Assembly: GCA_029269845.2 (NCBI GenBank)
Contig: CP149973.1
Coordinates: 1,080,001 to 1,112,000 of the forward strand
DNA from: Opitutia bacterium KCR 482
GTDB taxonomy: Bacteria; Verrucomicrobiota; Verrucomicrobiia; Opitutales; Intestinicryptomonadaceae
DNA: 32,000 nt
Direction of reading: 5' to 3'
Under the pieces are notes generated by a model. The model was not told the origin of the DNA. It saw only the letters and a list, made by a program, of their open reading frames with translations, and ran no database searches. The translations under genes were made by a program, and so were the position numbers. The first letter of the stretch is position 1. Every line of letters begins with the position of its first letter. Shown in pieces: positions 3,746-8,852 of this stretch.

Positions 3746-4915
3746 TCAAGACTTTTCGCATTCCCCGCGAAATTTTTTTGCGCCCGCCCGCGCGTGCGCG
3801 CGGCGGCTTTGCGGGAATAAACCCGTTTTGCGGTTTCCCCAACCCGACACATAAAAGCGGGTTTTGCAAAATCGCAGATAAAAAATATCAGTTAAAAAAA
3901 CACCGCGCCTCGACGCGGGAAAAATGCCACGCATGTTGACGTAGCGCGAGCGGAGCAGCGACTGGTCGCGATGCCCCATGTTTAATTGCAGGCGCGGCAA
4001 GTCGGCGTAGCGTTTTGCGTGGAAGCTTGCGTAGGTGTGGCGCAGAATGTCCTGAATCCAGCATCCGCGAAAGCCAGAGTTATCGCGGATTTTCCGCCAG
4101 CGGCGTTGCCAGTCTGTCGGGCATATATGGGAAGAGTTTTGGGATTTGCGGGAAATCAAGAGCCTGTTCAAGACGGGCGGAATTTCCACCTGCCGCACGC
4201 CGCCTGTTTTCGAGCACTGCGAGCGGACGGTGATTGTCTTTTCTTCGGTGTCGATATCGCGCCAAGTTAGCCTGCGGACTTCGCGCGGGCGGATTCCAGT
4301 GTAGACCAAAAGCGCGGCAACGACCCCGCAACTCGGACTTTCGAGCTGGGCAGTCTTGATTAGCCGCCTTGTTTCGGCAAGTTTCAACGGCAGGATTTCT
4401 CTTTCGATTACTTTCTTGCGCTCGATTCGCTTTATCGGGTTTTTGTCGCACCATTCGCGGCGTATGGCGAATTCAAACAGACCGTGCAACATAGTCCGAG
4501 CCTTGTTGAATTGCGGGTTGGTATGAAACGCCGCATTCAGCCATTCCTCGCATTCCGATACGCTAAGCTCCGAAAAGTTGCGCTTGCCGAGTTCGGGATT
4601 TGTCCGCAAAAGACGGTTTCCGATACAACGAATGTCCCTTATGGAATCTGGACGCAAGTGCTGCTTGCTTTTAAAATATAAAGCGAACCCGTCGGATAAT
4701 GCCATTTCCTTCACCCGAATACTGCGCAAGCCAACCTCAATAACTTTCAAAATAAACTGCGCGTCGGTCAATTTGCAACCGCTTGGCTTTGCGTCCAAAA
4801 TGTTTTTGACATAACGCGCCGAATCGAGAACCGACACGGTCGCCGCCCCCAAAACTTCCTTAGCTGAATTTAGTATAGTGTTCATCGTATTTAAAATACG
4901 ATAGTCAAACATCAA
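3746..4915 (-). CDS. Tyrosine recombinase / phage-integrase-family site-specific recombinase. Maximal ORF given; alternative starts are ATG 4912 and ATG 4885.
   Basis: Catalytic signature in the correct order: R in TGIRPREVRRLTWRDID, H-x-x-R in ILRHTYASF, H in NMGHRD, and Y in LRSRYVNM (Tyr codon at 3941..3943). The track start at 4915 is a TTG. The 65 codons after the Tyr read through a terminator-like hairpin and may not be genuine. Confidence 0.8.
   Translation of the reverse strand: MMFDYRILNTMNTILNSAKEVLGAATVSVLDSARYVKNILDAKPSGCKLTDAQFILKVIEVGLRSIRVKEMALSDGFALYFKSKQHLRPDSIRDIRCIGNRLLRTNPELGKRNFSELSVSECEEWLNAAFHTNPQFNKARTMLHGLFEFAIRREWCDKNPIKRIERKKVIEREILPLKLAETRRLIKTAQLESPSCGVVAALLVYTGIRPREVRRLTWRDIDTEEKTITVRSQCSKTGGVRQVEIPPVLNRLLISRKSQNSSHICPTDWQRRWRKIRDNSGFRGCWIQDILRHTYASFHAKRYADLPRLQLNMGHRDQSLLRSRYVNMRGIFPASRRGVFLTDIFYLRFCKTRFYVSGWGNRKTGLFPQSRRAHARAGAKKFRGECEKS
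3894..3919 (-). terminator. Terminator-like hairpin plus T7 run, 22 nt after the recombinase catalytic Tyr codon and inside the annotated reading frame
   Basis: Minus strand reads cccgcg-tcgagg-cgcgg-tg-TTTTTTT. The 5-bp GC stem pairs 3903..3907 with 3914..3918, the loop is 6 nt, and the T7 run is A7 on the plus strand at 3894..3900. Confidence 0.4.
4883..4907. repeat. Left arm of a 25-nt inverted repeat (IRL)
   Basis: The sequence is catcgtatttaaaatacgatagtca. Its reverse complement, tgactatcgtattttaaatacgatg, matches 5055..5079 at 24/25 positions, with 21 contiguous matches. It contains a perfect 9+1+9 palindrome (atcgtattt a aaatacgat). Confidence 0.9.
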
Positions 4916-5054
4916 TTTCCAAAAAACTTTTGAACTTTTTGAAATTAGCTACTTCGGCAATTTTCTTGAACGGTTGGGAAACGTAATTTTGCGTTGGGTT
5001 TGAGAAATTGTACTTTTTAAATTTATTGCAATTCAAATTCTTGCAACTTTACGA
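4908..5054. promoter_or_regulatory. Candidate invertible promoter segment (147 bp) between the recombinase gene and the pentapeptide PEP-CTERM gene
   Basis: The segment is AT-rich and bracketed by the 25-nt IR pair. Two sigma70-like hexamer pairs face the plus-strand gene: TTGCAA 5026..5031 - N18 - TACGAT 5050..5055, and TTGCAA 5041..5046 - N17 - TATTTT 5064..5069. A weaker TTCAAG-N17-TAATTT faces the recombinase. Confidence 0.4.
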
Positions 5055-5079
5055 TGACTATCGTATTTTAAATACTATG
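5055..5079. repeat. Right arm of the 25-nt inverted repeat (IRR)
   Basis: The sequence is tgactatcgtattttaaatactatg, with a single mismatch (t5076) to the reverse complement of IRL. It ends 12 nt before the ATG at 5091. Confidence 0.9.
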
Positions 5080-5090
5080 CTCGTGAAATC

Positions 5091-8012
5091 ATGAAAAAAG
5101 CATTCATATTCCTGCAAGCAGCAATCATTTCAAGCGTAGCTTTTGCCGACAACGAAAATTTTGACGGACAAGACGTTAGTGGTCGAAGTTTTAGTGGCTC
5201 ATACGCTAATTCAAGTTGGGTAGGTTCTATCGCAATCGGGACGCGCTTTTCCGACTATTATACTAATAGCGACTATAGTAATTCGGATTTTAGCAACGCC
5301 AATTTGACTGCGGCTACATTTTGGGAAGCTACATTGACTGGGGCGAATTTCACAAATGCGATAATAAAACATGCATATTTTAGCGGTACAACTTCGAAAG
5401 GGTTTACTGAGGCGCAATTAAAATCGACCAAGAGCTATCAGGAAAAAGATTTAGGTAGAATAAACCTTGATGGAAATGATTTAAGTGGATGGGATTTTAG
5501 CGAGCAGAACTTAGAGAGAGCTAGCTTTTATAATGCTACGTTGACAAGTGCGAAATTAAGCAAGGCTAATTTAACTTCGGCAGAATTTAACAGTGCTAAT
5601 TTGGCAGGTGCAGATTTAAGCAATGCTGATTTAACTTCGGCAGATTTTTGCATTGCTAACTTGACTGACGCGAATTTCACCAATGCAAATTTAACTTCGA
5701 CAAACTTTAACAGTGCTAATTTGGCAGGTGCAGATTTAAGCAATGCAAATTTAACTTCGACTACATTTGGGGATGCTGCATTGACTGACGCGAATTTCAC
5801 CAATGCTACAATAAAAGATGCATATTTTACGAATGCTAACTTGACTGGGGCGAATTTTGCGAACACAAATTTAACTTCGGCACATTTTCATGGGGCTACT
5901 TTGACCGGTGCAGATTTAAGCAATGCAAATTTAACTTCGACATATTTAGATTATGTTAACTTGACAAATGCAGATTTAAGCAATGCTGATTTAACTTCGG
6001 CATATTTAGGCGATGCTAACTTGACTGACGCGAATTTCAATAATGCAACAATAAATGGCGCGAATTTTAGCGGTATAAATTCGAAAGGGTTTACTGAGGC
6101 ACAATTAAAATCGACCAAGAGTTATCAGGAAAAAGATTTAAGCGATATAACCTTTAGTCCGTGGGGTAGTGATTTTAGTGGTTGGGATTTTAGCGAACAG
6201 AACTTAGAGAGAGCTAGCTTTTATAATGCTACGTTGACAAGTGCGAAATTAAGCAAGACGAATTTAACTTCGGCAGATTTTAACAGTGCTAATTTGGCAA
6301 GTGCAGATTTCACAAATGCGATAATAAAAGACACAAATTTTAGCAATGCAACTTCATTTACTGAGGAACAATTAAAATCGACCAAGAGCTATCAGGAAAA
6401 AGATTTGAGCGGAATAAAGTTGCTCTATAACGATTTGAGTGGTTGGGATTTTAATGAACAGAACTTAAGCTCTGCTGATTTTTTGGGTGCTACGTTAACG
6501 GGAACAAGTTTTACAAACGCAATAATCAAAGGTGCGCGTTTTTCAAGTATTGCAAAAGATCAGTTGCTATCAACCAAGAGCTATCAAGAAAAAAATCTGG
6601 AAGGAACAAGTTTTTTGCAGTGCGACTTTTCTGGTATTGATTTCAGTAATGCAAACCTAAATTCGGCGAGCTTTTCGTTCACGGCGTTAGCAGGTTCAAA
6701 TTTCAATAATGCTACAATAAATGGCGCGAATTTTAGCGGTACAACTTCGAAAGGGTTTACTGAGGCGCAATTAAAGTCGACCAAGAGCTACCAAGAAAAG
6801 GATTTAGGAAGTATAAGTCTTGGCAATAATGATTTAAATGGCTGGAATTTTAGCGGGCAAAATCTAACATCTGCAAGTTTTGAAAATGCTTCTTTGGCAA
6901 ATGCAGATTTAAGCAATGCTACAATAAATGGCGCGAATTTTAGCGGTACAACGTTGAAGGGTTTTACTGAGGCGCAATTAAAATCAACCAAGAGCTACCA
7001 AGAAAAAAATTTGAGCAGTATAAATCTTGGCAATAACGATTTAAATGGATGGAATTTTAGCGGGCAAAATCTAACATCTGCAAGTTTTGAAAATGCTTCT
7101 TTGGCAAATGCAGATTTAAGCAATGCTACAATAAATGGCGCGAATTTTAGCGGTACAACGTTGAAGGGTTTTACTGAGGCGCAATTAAAATCAACCAAGA
7201 GCTACCAAGAAAAAAATTTGAACAGTATAAATCTTGGCAATAACGATTTAAATGGATGGAATTTTAGCGGGCAGAATCTAACATCTGCCAATTTTGAAAA
7301 TGCTTCTTTGGCAAATGCAGATTTAAGCAATGCTACAATAAATGGCGCGAATTTTAGCGGCGCCGATTTGCGCGGTGCAACGTTTGAAAACATTGTCGGC
7401 GACCCGAATTACAAAAACACGATAATGACGGACGGAACAATCAAGAATTTTCGGATGATGGGCTATAAGGACAATTTGCTTATTCGTAAATATGAAAATT
7501 CTGACGGGAAAACAATTTCCGCGAAGATTTCGGATTACCATAGATTTGCCTCAATTTCTTTTGGGGAGAAGTTGACTCTTGAAAATGGTGCGGCGTTCGA
7601 AATTGCAAACAGAGCAGTTCTGTATGTTGGTTGGCGCGGAATGATTCAAATTGACACTGATTTAAGCGGTTCTACGAAATTCACGGTAGGCAAATATTCC
7701 AGTCTTTATTTTTCGGACGGGGCAACTCTTACTGTAAATATTGTTGAAGAGATATTGTCGAGCGATGTCTACGATGTTGCTGTAATTTCGTTTGCAGATA
7801 GTTCTCGTATTTCCGGATTGGGTGATTTTGTTAAGGGCAAAACGTTATTCCTGACCGTAAACGGAAAGAAATTTAGTGGCGCGTGGGACTACGCGCTTAA
7901 AAGCGACGGATTGTACATTTCACTCAACATTCCCGAGCCTGCGACTTATGCGGTTGTTTTTGGGCTGTTGGCGATGGGGGTTGCGGTAAGGCGCAATTTG
8001 AAAAGGAGATAG
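5091..8012 (+). CDS. Secreted pentapeptide-repeat protein with N-terminal signal peptide and C-terminal PEP-CTERM sorting signal
   Basis: 973-aa ORF. The signal peptide is MKKAFIFLQAAIISSVAFA/DN. There are long runs of A(N/D)LxS/A-type pentapeptides (ANLTSAEFNSANLAGADLSNADLTSADF...). The linker motif FTEAQLKSTKSYQEK(D/N)L and variants occur seven times. The C-terminus IPEPATYAVVFGLLAMGVAVRRNLKRR has the PEP motif, a TM helix and a basic tail. Confidence 0.9.
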   Translation: MKKAFIFLQAAIISSVAFADNENFDGQDVSGRSFSGSYANSSWVGSIAIGTRFSDYYTNSDYSNSDFSNANLTAATFWEATLTGANFTNAIIKHAYFSGTTSKGFTEAQLKSTKSYQEKDLGRINLDGNDLSGWDFSEQNLERASFYNATLTSAKLSKANLTSAEFNSANLAGADLSNADLTSADFCIANLTDANFTNANLTSTNFNSANLAGADLSNANLTSTTFGDAALTDANFTNATIKDAYFTNANLTGANFANTNLTSAHFHGATLTGADLSNANLTSTYLDYVNLTNADLSNADLTSAYLGDANLTDANFNNATINGANFSGINSKGFTEAQLKSTKSYQEKDLSDITFSPWGSDFSGWDFSEQNLERASFYNATLTSAKLSKTNLTSADFNSANLASADFTNAIIKDTNFSNATSFTEEQLKSTKSYQEKDLSGIKLLYNDLSGWDFNEQNLSSADFLGATLTGTSFTNAIIKGARFSSIAKDQLLSTKSYQEKNLEGTSFLQCDFSGIDFSNANLNSASFSFTALAGSNFNNATINGANFSGTTSKGFTEAQLKSTKSYQEKDLGSISLGNNDLNGWNFSGQNLTSASFENASLANADLSNATINGANFSGTTLKGFTEAQLKSTKSYQEKNLSSINLGNNDLNGWNFSGQNLTSASFENASLANADLSNATINGANFSGTTLKGFTEAQLKSTKSYQEKNLNSINLGNNDLNGWNFSGQNLTSANFENASLANADLSNATINGANFSGADLRGATFENIVGDPNYKNTIMTDGTIKNFRMMGYKDNLLIRKYENSDGKTISAKISDYHRFASISFGEKLTLENGAAFEIANRAVLYVGWRGMIQIDTDLSGSTKFTVGKYSSLYFSDGATLTVNIVEEILSSDVYDVAVISFADSSRISGLGDFVKGKTLFLTVNGKKFSGAWDYALKSDGLYISLNIPEPATYAVVFGLLAMGVAVRRNLKRR
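6708..7360 (+). repeat. In-frame tandem repeat, 207-bp unit (69 codons), about 3.15 copies, inside the pentapeptide gene
   Basis: Units begin with aatgctacaataaatggcgcgaattttagcgg at 6708, 6915, 7122 and 7329 (the last is partial). Copies 2 and 3 differ at only a few bases, for example ttgagcagta versus ttgaacagta. More diverged dispersed copies lie at about 5378..5610 and 6065..6300. The mirror-image minus-strand ORFs at 6788, 6995 and 7202 show the same 207-bp period. Confidence 0.9.
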
Positions 8013-8138
8013 AAGCGCAAAGCGAAAAAACTTGGGGCGCGGCTCATTTTGGACTTGCAAAAAATCGGCATATGCAATTTATTTCGGGCTTGCAAGGGGA
8101 ATTGATATTGCCGCCCTTGCGCTTCTACTTTATACAAC

Positions 8139-8852
8139 ATGACAACTATGAAAAACATAAAAAAATCAAAAGGTTTCACGCTCGTCGAGCTGCTCATCGT
8201 TATCGCCATTATCGGCGTTCTCGCCAGCTTGATTTATCCCGCCCTCTCTCAGGCCATGGGTGCGGGCAGCAAAGTTAAGTCGATGAACAGCGCAAGCAAC
8301 ATCGCAAAAACTTGGCTCTCCTATGTCAAAACGGGCACTAAAACCCGCATCGTAACGGGTCAGACCATCTACGACTGGGCCGCCGCCCTCGCCCGCGGCG
8401 TTGACGACTTCAACGACCCCAAGCTCTGGATTCTCGACTTCGACCTCCCCGTTATCGAAAAAATTTCCTCGGGCGCGGCTATGCCCAAGTTTGTTATCGA
8501 CCGCAAAGGCTCGAACACAAGGCTTGACCCCGAATTCAAAAGCTTCCCCATCAGCTGGGCCGTCGCAAACCGCACAGACCCCAACGCGCCCTCGGGCACT
8601 CCCCTCGTCTGGACGCGCGGCTTGAAGCCCAACGGCGAGTGGGACGCCAACGAAGGCGTGTTCAAGCGCGAGGGCGGCCACATTGCCTACACCGACGCGC
8701 ACGTCGAATGGTACACTTCCCTCCGCGACGAAAACACGGGCCAGGGGCTCTTGACGGTCTACGGCGAAACGTCGAGAACGTTCAACATTGCGCAGGCAAT
8801 CCGCGGCGGCTCGGGCAACATTCTCAAAAGCTCGGTAGGTTTCGAAGAATAA
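8139..8852 (+). CDS. Prepilin-type N-terminal cleavage/methylation domain protein (type II secretion / type IV pilin-like pseudopilin)
   Basis: KGFTLVELLIVIAIIGVLASL is the canonical prepilin peptidase motif (G/FTLxE) followed by a hydrophobic helix. The C-terminal GGHIAYTDAHVEW resembles the conserved GG-x5-DGHV end of the PVC-group prepilin-like families. The start could also be ATG 8148. Confidence 0.85.
   Translation: MTTMKNIKKSKGFTLVELLIVIAIIGVLASLIYPALSQAMGAGSKVKSMNSASNIAKTWLSYVKTGTKTRIVTGQTIYDWAAALARGVDDFNDPKLWILDFDLPVIEKISSGAAMPKFVIDRKGSNTRLDPEFKSFPISWAVANRTDPNAPSGTPLVWTRGLKPNGEWDANEGVFKREGGHIAYTDAHVEWYTSLRDENTGQGLLTVYGETSRTFNIAQAIRGGSGNILKSSVGFEE

Follow-up and report, generated by a model that had tools for sequence, protein, structure and literature searches.

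The locus and its inverted repeat

We analyzed a 32,000-nucleotide (nt) stretch of the genome of Opitutia bacterium KCR 482 (contig CP149973.1, positions 1,080,001 to 1,112,000), a member of the Opitutales (Verrucomicrobiota), and refer to this whole stretch as the window. In it, a short inverted repeat lies between a tyrosine recombinase gene and a divergently oriented gene for a secreted pentapeptide-repeat protein, here called the cargo gene. The original prediction, made from the letters of the window, had proposed that the repeat bounds an invertible promoter, flipped by the adjacent recombinase, that switches this surface-protein gene on and off. The two genes and the parts of the repeat are listed below by window coordinates.

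3746 to 4885, minus strand: tyrosine recombinase gene and candidate invertase, 379 amino acids (aa), PF00589; its ATG at 4885 lies inside the left arm
4883 to 4907, no strand: recombinase-proximal arm, holding the proximal core and the recombinase start codon (CAT at 4883-4885 on the plus strand)
4887 to 4899, no strand: proximal core GTATT-TAA-AATAC, centre at 4892-4894, with the putative crossover in TT-NNN-AA
4908 to 5054, no strand: AT-rich interior of 147 bp; homologous interiors are inverted in sister loci
5055 to 5079, no strand: distal arm, as found by the repeat search
5063 to 5075, no strand: distal core GTATT-TTA-AATAC, centre at 5068-5070
5079 to 8016, no strand: strain-variable cargo segment; homology to orthologous loci breaks at the distal core edge and is back at 8017
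5091 to 8012, plus strand: cargo gene for a secreted 973-aa pentapeptide-repeat protein with a PEP-CTERM-like C-terminus; GC content 37% versus ~57% in the surroundings

Our repeat search returned the same arms as had been claimed, each 25 nt long and complementary at 24/25 positions (96%), with 147 nt between them. Their exact 21-nt part (4887-4907 and 5055-5075) is the longest exact inverted repeat with a loop of 20-300 nt in the whole 32-kb window, and resampling the local 1.2 kb 200 times under a first-order Markov model gave no exact inverted repeat longer than 13 nt. The repeat is confirmed as real and far above chance. As also predicted, each arm carries its own dyad, the 19-nt motif ATCGTATTT[A/T]AAATACGAT, which is perfect at 4884-4902 and has one mismatch at 5060-5078; this motif has two matches in the window against 0.00 expected. 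The centres of the arms are mirrored (TTTAAAA versus TTTTAAA) and a TGACT extension lies on the inner side of both, and the arms are therefore truly inverted, as the original prediction had held. Both cores are intact, with centres TAA (4892-4894) and TTA (5068-5070) that are reverse complements of each other. We found no further core site in the 32-kb window, which excludes a multi-site shufflon there.

The open reading frames (ORFs) to either side were as described before. The Phage_integrase ORF begins on the minus strand at the ATG at 4885, a start codon that is conserved in the family and that agrees with the proposed recombinase start. The cargo protein has a signal peptide; its PEP-CTERM match, however, is sub-threshold (16.8 bits versus a cut-off of 20.7). 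An exact-sequence look-up of the window recombinase and cargo proteins returned nothing on record.

Other kinds of element were considered for the same region. The predicted fold of 4883-5094 is dominated by the pairing of the inverted repeat (z = -6.9) and adds nothing beyond the DNA-level evidence; with no Rfam family above noise in the window, we dropped a riboswitch or small RNA reading. A tRNA-linked island was likewise dropped, as the window holds no tRNA. Finally, we rejected the ends of an insertion sequence or transposon, given that the recombinase lies outside the repeats and that the synteny MgtE - recombinase - cargo - N_methyl is stable across strains.

Inversion at sister loci and covariation of the core centres

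We read the element as a site-specific DNA inversion switch (inverton) that belongs to a multi-copy family in gut Opitutales, and we put the probability of this reading at roughly 0.8. Family loci, cited below by L numbers, were gathered by a scan of representative genomes and by a metagenome scan that added 80 loci. The original prediction had suggested a search for the core beside homologous recombinases in related genomes, and in genomes and metagenomes of gut Opitutales more than 100 genes for homologous tyrosine recombinases indeed have the same two-core architecture on their 5' side. Hosts of the recombinase family include UMGS885, Candidatus Merdousia, Intestinicryptomonas porci, and a Puniceicoccaceae isolate, with 2-6 paralogues per genome, and many of the contigs end close to the recombinase gene. 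Across the family, the spacing between cores leaves interiors of 139-176 nt, the proximal core usually starts 14 nt before the recombinase ATG, and this ATG lies 1 nt past the core in 94-96% of loci. In other assemblies, syntenic loci show the order MgtE - recombinase - variable genes - N_methyl protein.

In the mechanism that we propose, the two inverted GTATT-NNN-AATAC cores (4887-4899 and 5063-5075) would bracket an invertible segment of ~150 bp, the adjacent Xer-like recombinase would bind the GTATT/AATAC arms together with their flanks, and strand exchange would take place in the TT-NNN-AA overlap. Exchange within this overlap means that the centre triplet must be the reverse complement at the partner site, as the overlap regions of tyrosine recombinases need homology between partner sites. 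We counted, without filtering, 113 pairs of exact GTATT-NNN-AATAC cores lying 100-300 nt apart. Their centre triplets were reverse-complementary in 112 of the 113 pairs, against a chance expectation of 1/64, and these pairs spanned 16 triplet classes and 97 distinct interiors. A tyrosine-recombinase crossover region whose two copies are inverted would be expected to covary in this way. Moreover, recombinases that are at least 80% identical use different centre triplets, which argues that the protein does not read the triplet and that a match between the partners is what is required. The 16 matched classes amount to natural mutagenesis data on the overlap-homology rule of tyrosine recombinases.

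Two further observations concern individual loci. The sole non-complementary pair among the 113 (L066:3820-3999, GCA versus TGT) is a candidate locked switch. L017 and L020, which lie ~250 kb apart on contig CAKTSY010000001.1, agree in their centre (TAG/CTA) and almost entirely in their interior; diversified triplets thus do not insulate in every case, and large rearrangements between these two loci would be possible.

Comparison of sister loci revealed the inversion itself. Both 600-nt flanks of L102 are collinear with those of L087 and L091 and 94-96% identical to them, whereas the 161-162 nt interior is 98-99% identical only as the reverse complement (forward, ~71% over a short stretch). 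In L056, an independent Logan assembly that we spotted by an odd N-terminal extension of its predicted protein, the interior is identical to that of L087 at 161/161 positions as the reverse complement. A second sister locus is L007, which compared with L105, L057, and L064 has distal flanks that are 92% identical and recombinase flanks that are 82-86% identical, with an interior that is 82-89% identical in reverse only. We take these inversions as real, given that typical assembly k-mers exceed the arms in length and that flipped forms were recovered from independent samples (ERZ773181 for L102 and SRR31227614 for L056). Inversion occurs in nature at two sister loci of the family, whose inverted interiors measure 141-162 nt.

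When the polarity of the interiors was scored, 106 of 112 pairs were in the common orientation, which is that of the window, and 5 were flipped (L007, L014, L052, L056, and L118). L102 makes a sixth flipped locus; its proximal core carries a point mutation (GTACT..., L102:3966-3978), and it is another candidate locked switch. Together, these results make it very probable that the element belongs to a truly inverting family. The proposal of an inversion switch with an adjacent recombinase was therefore upheld at the family level, by the covariation and by the sister-locus inversions, whereas for the window locus itself no flipped copy turned up.

A further observation concerns assembly ends. 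Contigs L138, L012, L031, and L067 start or end exactly at a core, with L138 beginning 3 nt past the distal core. Such ends would be expected if assemblers meet alternative continuations there, which could come from inversion or from cargo heterogeneity.

Putative promoter elements and the predicted direction of switching

The sequence elements that bear on the direction of the switch are as follows.

4893 to 4898, minus strand: -10-like TATTTT in the proximal core, with a weak -35, TTGGAA, at 4917-4922 (minus) and an 18-nt spacer
4903 to 4908, minus strand: TTGACT, the window form of a -35-like TTGAC(A/T) that is near-invariant family-wide, 3 nt from the core
5041 to 5046, plus strand: TTGCAA, a weak cargo-side -35, 17 nt before TATTTT at 5064-5069 in the distal core
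5076 to 5081, plus strand: TATGCT, -10-like, just outside the distal core, at the position of the distal-flank consensus
5077 to 5094, plus strand: 5-codon mini-ORF ATG CTC GTG AAA TCA TGA, whose stop overlaps the cargo ATG at 5091 (ATGA)

Cargo start codons lie 14-60 nt past the distal core throughout the family. This leaves no space for an independent promoter, so the cargo promoter must overlap the switch. In order to compare the interiors, we oriented them alike, anchored them on the cores, and scored them for matches to TTGACA. A weak -35 likeness (~3 of 6 positions versus a background of ~1.5) appeared at both interior ends, 17-18 nt before the TATTNN of the core, with nearly equal means of 3.0 and 2.85 of 6. 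A match to TTGACA averaging 5.7 of 6 appeared at one interior end only, 3 nt from the core and with an AT-rich tract upstream. As read from these aligned interiors, TTGAC(A/T) is the only conserved asymmetric feature of the segment. The outer flanks also differ between the two ends: the distal one has the composition T59 A78 T71 A72 n T44, which resembles TATAnT, whereas the recombinase-side one reads [C/G]ATG[A/G]A. An A at position 2 together with a T at position 6 was found in 40% of distal and 0% of proximal outer flanks.

We propose that the weak TTGnnn -35 and the in-core TATTNN -10 could act at either end, with transcription starting 7-8 nt further on, which on the recombinase side would be the A of its ATG or the nucleotide preceding it. 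Whichever way the segment lies, the recombinase mRNA would then be produced and would lack a leader. In the common orientation, shown by the window, TTGACA faces the recombinase, where the hexamer 16 nt downstream is [C/G]ATG[A/G]A and would offer no -10. After a flip, TTGACA would face the cargo, and the TATAnT-like hexamer 16 nt downstream would complete a strong promoter split across the recombination site. For the window, a flip would place TTGACT at 5054-5059, where it would pair with TATGCT at 5076-5081 and could direct a start near 5088, just ahead of the ATG at 5091. On these consensus matches we lean, by a narrow margin of belief, towards the flipped state as the state of high expression and the window as the basal or OFF state of the pentapeptide/PEP-CTERM gene.

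The original prediction had taken the opposite view, in which the segment inverts but its present orientation is ON, with TTGCAA-N17-TATTTT driving the pentapeptide gene and being lost on a flip. Its hexamers exist at 5041-5046 and 5064-5069 with canonical spacing, and the -35-like peak at the cargo end is conserved in the family. A start at ~5076-5077 would give a leaderless mini-ORF coupled through ATGA to the cargo ATG; the predicted mini-ORF was found as claimed, with 5 codons, and L041 has an analogous one of 6 codons. Moreover, an ON majority is possible if assemblies show the majority state, as with the cps1 inverton of Akkermansia in mice (PMC13343947). However, an equally good -35 stands at the other end and the -10 lies in the immobile core, so that a flip would swap equivalent promoters; TTGCAA-N17-TATTTT cannot by itself confer orientation dependence. 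Nor does an ON state in the window account for the near-invariant TTGACA or for the TATAnT beyond the distal site. An outward-facing ATG does occur at both arms, as had been noted, but the distal one is peculiar to the window, whose TATG, the source of the mini-ORF, is not family-typical (consensus TATA, within TATAnT). With the asymmetric TTGAC(A/T) facing the recombinase, the present orientation is more likely basal or OFF, and we regard an ON state as possible but the less probable of the two.

Several observations weigh against the switch as we read it. The promoter hexamers of the family are not listed by a generic sigma-70 scan, which inside the segment returned only TTGAAT-N18-TACAAT on the minus strand, a match not conserved in the family; our promoter calls are consensus matches in a phylum with poorly mapped promoters and are to be taken as provisional. 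Through its extended inner arms, the window already presents ATGACT-N16-TATGCT on the cargo side, so the predicted ON/OFF contrast of this copy could be small. TTGACA could alternatively be a site for the recombinase or for an accessory factor that sets directional bias. Flipped loci number 6 of ~113, and inversion may accordingly be rare or strongly biased. Finally, no flipped copy of the window locus was found among 12 orthologous sequences: the window is in the common orientation, as is each of its 11 close relatives (L001-3, L006, L009, L073, L077, L114, and L137-139).

Recombinase integrity, cargo exchange, and related systems

The recombinase has Phage_integrase (PF00589, 1.8e-12) as its sole Pfam match, which places it in the tyrosine recombinase family and led us to discard a serine invertase of the Hin/Gin/Mpi type. 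We found 911 homologues, the best of them 95% identical over 330 aa; within the top 120, identity spans 68-95% and 331 aa is the typical length. The best sequence similarity is to Xer proteins, through the XerA model NF040815 (1.2e-14) and the structures of XerA (PDB 5hxy) and XerD (PDB 1a0p). Aligned to XerA and XerD, the recombinase shows the motifs YTGIRPRE, (D)ILRHT, and GH...RSRY, in which Arg-I, xxR-H, GH, and the Tyr of RSRY correspond. Its NCBIfam scores were 54.5 bits against a cut-off of 220 for XerA, 38.6 against 335 for XerC, and 30.7 against 330 for XerD. Judged by these scores, the recombinase is distantly Xer-like and below every NCBIfam cut-off, and we did not assign it to the XerC, XerD, or XerA dimer resolvases, whose curated cut-offs are far above. 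NCBIfam matches at E<=0.01 included no Fim recombinase model, a statement about models, as no FimB or FimE sequence was compared.

Two features of the enzyme add to the points against the switch. Throughout the recombinase family, the box-II His of HxxR is replaced by Asp in the alignment with XerA and XerD (window residues ~277-283, QDILRHT). In addition, the window recombinase differs from that of L001 in two T-runs on the minus strand at 3890-3935, with T5 for T3 (CATTTTTCCC) and T7 for T8 before the stop. These changes shift the frame after RSRYVNMRG, and the conserved tail ISRxEAxxFF* (last ~12 residues) is gone. In its place stands a 60-aa read-through, with the ORF 48 codons longer and running through a terminator-like hairpin at 3918-3903; a homologue-like 331-aa stop would fall near 3890. 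The changes could represent an inactivating or phase-variable slip, or a homopolymer assembly error. With such a tail, the enzyme may be impaired, and the window copy may rely on a paralogue or be locked.

The window switch might therefore be a relic, a member of the family that no longer flips. We hold this to be unlikely, slightly more so than the ON state discussed above, although the two homopolymer differences from L001 destroy a tail whose 20 C-terminal residues are retained in 101 of 120 homologues, and all 12 of the 12 orthologous sequences stand in one orientation. Against a relic, both cores are intact with matching centres, orthologues with an intact recombinase are likewise all in the common orientation, and the indels lie in T-runs, where they could be assembly errors. 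Paralogues share the GTATT/AATAC arms and might also act in trans. A case in point is an orphan inverton at L009:5167-5330, which has both cores (TAA/TTA) and is flanked on one side by a PEP-CTERM gene but adjoins no recombinase gene. Its interior recurs in L082, which has a recombinase, and the pair suggests trans action by paralogues. Flipping of the window copy is thus a reading drawn from its family, and we consider it somewhat more likely than not that the window copy retains the ability to flip, through its own enzyme or through that of a paralogue.

We next considered the genes controlled by the switches. The first gene past the distal core falls into 57 clusters among ~110 loci. By Pfam, these include 11 PEP-CTERM, 9 pentapeptide-repeat, and 2 autotransporter clusters, enzymes of lipopolysaccharide (LPS) and glycan metabolism (WavE, GT25, and acyltransferase 3), CAP12/Pycsar-type TIR domains (2 clusters), a protein kinase, and a dynamin-like GTPase; a large number of clusters were without a family match. 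Such functions are typical of phase-variable genes, and part of the cargo hints at phase-variable anti-phage defence behind some switches. A ~155-aa P-loop protein recurs as cargo, as do TIR, kinase, and dynamin-like GTPase proteins (L005, L018, L021, L036, L110, L121, L123, and others).

At the window position itself, 9 orthologous loci lose homology to the window at 5077-5078, where the distal core has its outer edge. In L001 homology returns at 8017 with 99.7% identity, and between these points lies unrelated low-GC cargo. The cargo of other strains at this position (L001, L137, L139, L006, L073, L077, and L114) is entirely different from that of the window and consists of proteins of 255 + 943 aa, of 141 + 578 aa, of 218 aa, or of a 187-aa membrane protein. 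Beyond its variable cargo, every syntenic locus has a conserved gene whose product carries the prepilin-type N-terminal methylation motif (N_methyl; 8139-8852 in the window). Identity between L139 and the window is 99% up to 4513 but 79% over 4497-5078, which marks a mosaic breakpoint in the recombinase gene; the 5' third of this gene appears to travel together with the switch and the cargo. L056 and L087 have the same cargo and an identical inverted interior, yet the first 400 nt of their recombinase genes are 78% identical, and recombinase genes seem to be shuffled between paralogous modules.

The sharp homology break at the distal core edge in those 9 loci, the 57 cargo clusters among ~110 loci, and best NCBIfam similarities that include XerA and integron integrase could also suggest that the locus is primarily an integration or exchange platform, integron- or island-like, in which cargo is swapped at the distal core and inversion is secondary. 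However, the right cargo boundary carries no second core-like site or other repeat and no attC-like repeats, there is no tRNA or direct repeat, and the integron-integrase score (TIGR02249) is 38.3 bits against a cut-off of 265; with the score below cut-off and no site at the distal cargo boundary, we did not class the module as an integron. A sharp left edge is also expected if a switch module abuts cargo exchanged by homologous recombination, and mosaic breakpoints lie inside the recombinase gene as well. The lack of a second boundary site and the breakpoints within the recombinase gene favour homologous recombination between modules over cassette capture, and a primary role as an exchange platform is improbable. 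Equally speculative, and in our judgement poorly favoured, is a broader scenario in which the module would act as a duplicating expression platform complete in itself and would, at its distal core, capture or swap foreign low-GC cargo as well, an inverting, integron-like cassette acceptor, with the triplets insulating paralogues from one another. Far less credible still is a model without inversion, in which a dimeric regulator, or the recombinase in autoregulation, would bind the palindromes as operators and loop the divergent promoter region. Each arm is indeed palindromic, and the sites cover the start codon of the recombinase as well as -10-like elements, but operators have no need of inverted asymmetric centres, which 112 of 113 pairs in 16 triplet classes nevertheless have and which rule out a simple operator pair, and interiors are physically inverted between collinear flanks.

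The switch therefore remains our preferred reading, and it is of a well-known kind. Tyrosine recombinases beside invertible promoters include FimB/FimE at fimS in E. coli and the Tsr-type invertases of Bacteroides fragilis; there, the invertible segment contains the complete promoter, and separate promoters serve the recombinase genes. The Opitutales family resembles them in having a tyrosine recombinase beside a short promoter segment flanked by inverted repeats, in its link to surface structures, and in a strong orientation bias. Unlike them, it has the recombinase start codon in the repeat and a -10-like element in the crossover core, and its switchable promoter would be split, with the -35 inside the segment and the -10 outside. 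A start codon and a -10 element are thus built into the recombination site, across which the switchable promoter may be split.

The resemblance to Xer recombinases lies in the best sequence similarity and in a site that is a short dyad with a central overlap. In contrast to the single dif site of Xer systems, the Opitutales modules have two inverted sites, with several paralogues per genome and Asp for the first His of HxxR. In an integron, too, a tyrosine recombinase gene diverges from a site and a promoter serving variable genes of foreign appearance, and the cargo edge lies at the site. The Opitutales module, however, lacks an IntI signature and attC-like cargo ends, and it has two inverted sites and documented inversion.

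Alongside the fimS and Bacteroides switches, the closest known system is found in the same phylum and in the same habitat, the gut. Dozens of invertons are described for Akkermansia muciniphila, with CGGATT..AATCCG as their motif (that of Jiang et al. 2019, quoted in PMC13343947; 'group 138' in PMC11892184), and an example at 2092093-2092109-2092267-2092283 has 17-nt repeats around an interior of ~157 nt (PMC11892184). The palindrome-like xxATT-N-AATxx repeats and the geometry are thus close to those of the Opitutales switches, whose interiors are 139-176 nt. Akkermansia invertons are enriched near PEP-CTERM and autotransporter genes (PMC11892184), an association matched by 11 + 2 of the 57 Opitutales cargo clusters, and one of them controls the cps1 capsule (PMC13343947). 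In natural samples both orientations occur in Akkermansia (PMC13343947), as they do at the Opitutales sister loci. The core motifs differ, CGGATT..AATCCG in Akkermansia versus GTATT-NNN-AATAC in Opitutales. No invertase is named for the Akkermansia invertons in PMC11892184 or PMC13343947, whereas nearly all Opitutales switches adjoin their own recombinase, which belongs to a clade below every curated NCBIfam cut-off and has its start codon in the repeat. In addition, invertases near invertons are generally sited where the inverton cannot regulate them (PMC11892184), while the Opitutales recombinase is sited where it can. We found no Akkermansia-type motif in the loci from metagenome-assembled genomes labelled Akkermansia; one of these, L033, has the Opitutales-type design.

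Gut Opitutales are common yet little-studied members of human and animal microbiomes, and within an incomplete coverage of the literature we found no paper linking them with invertons or phase variation. Several switch modules per genome, wired to surface, glycan, and defence-like genes, imply that much of their surface and phage-interaction repertoire is likely phase-variable, as in Bacteroides and Akkermansia. A cultured relative, Intestinicryptomonas porci Cla-KB-P66, carries several copies, among them L008, L036, L043, and L052, which makes experiments feasible. L052 appears flipped by the position of TTGAC alone and has no unflipped orthologue.

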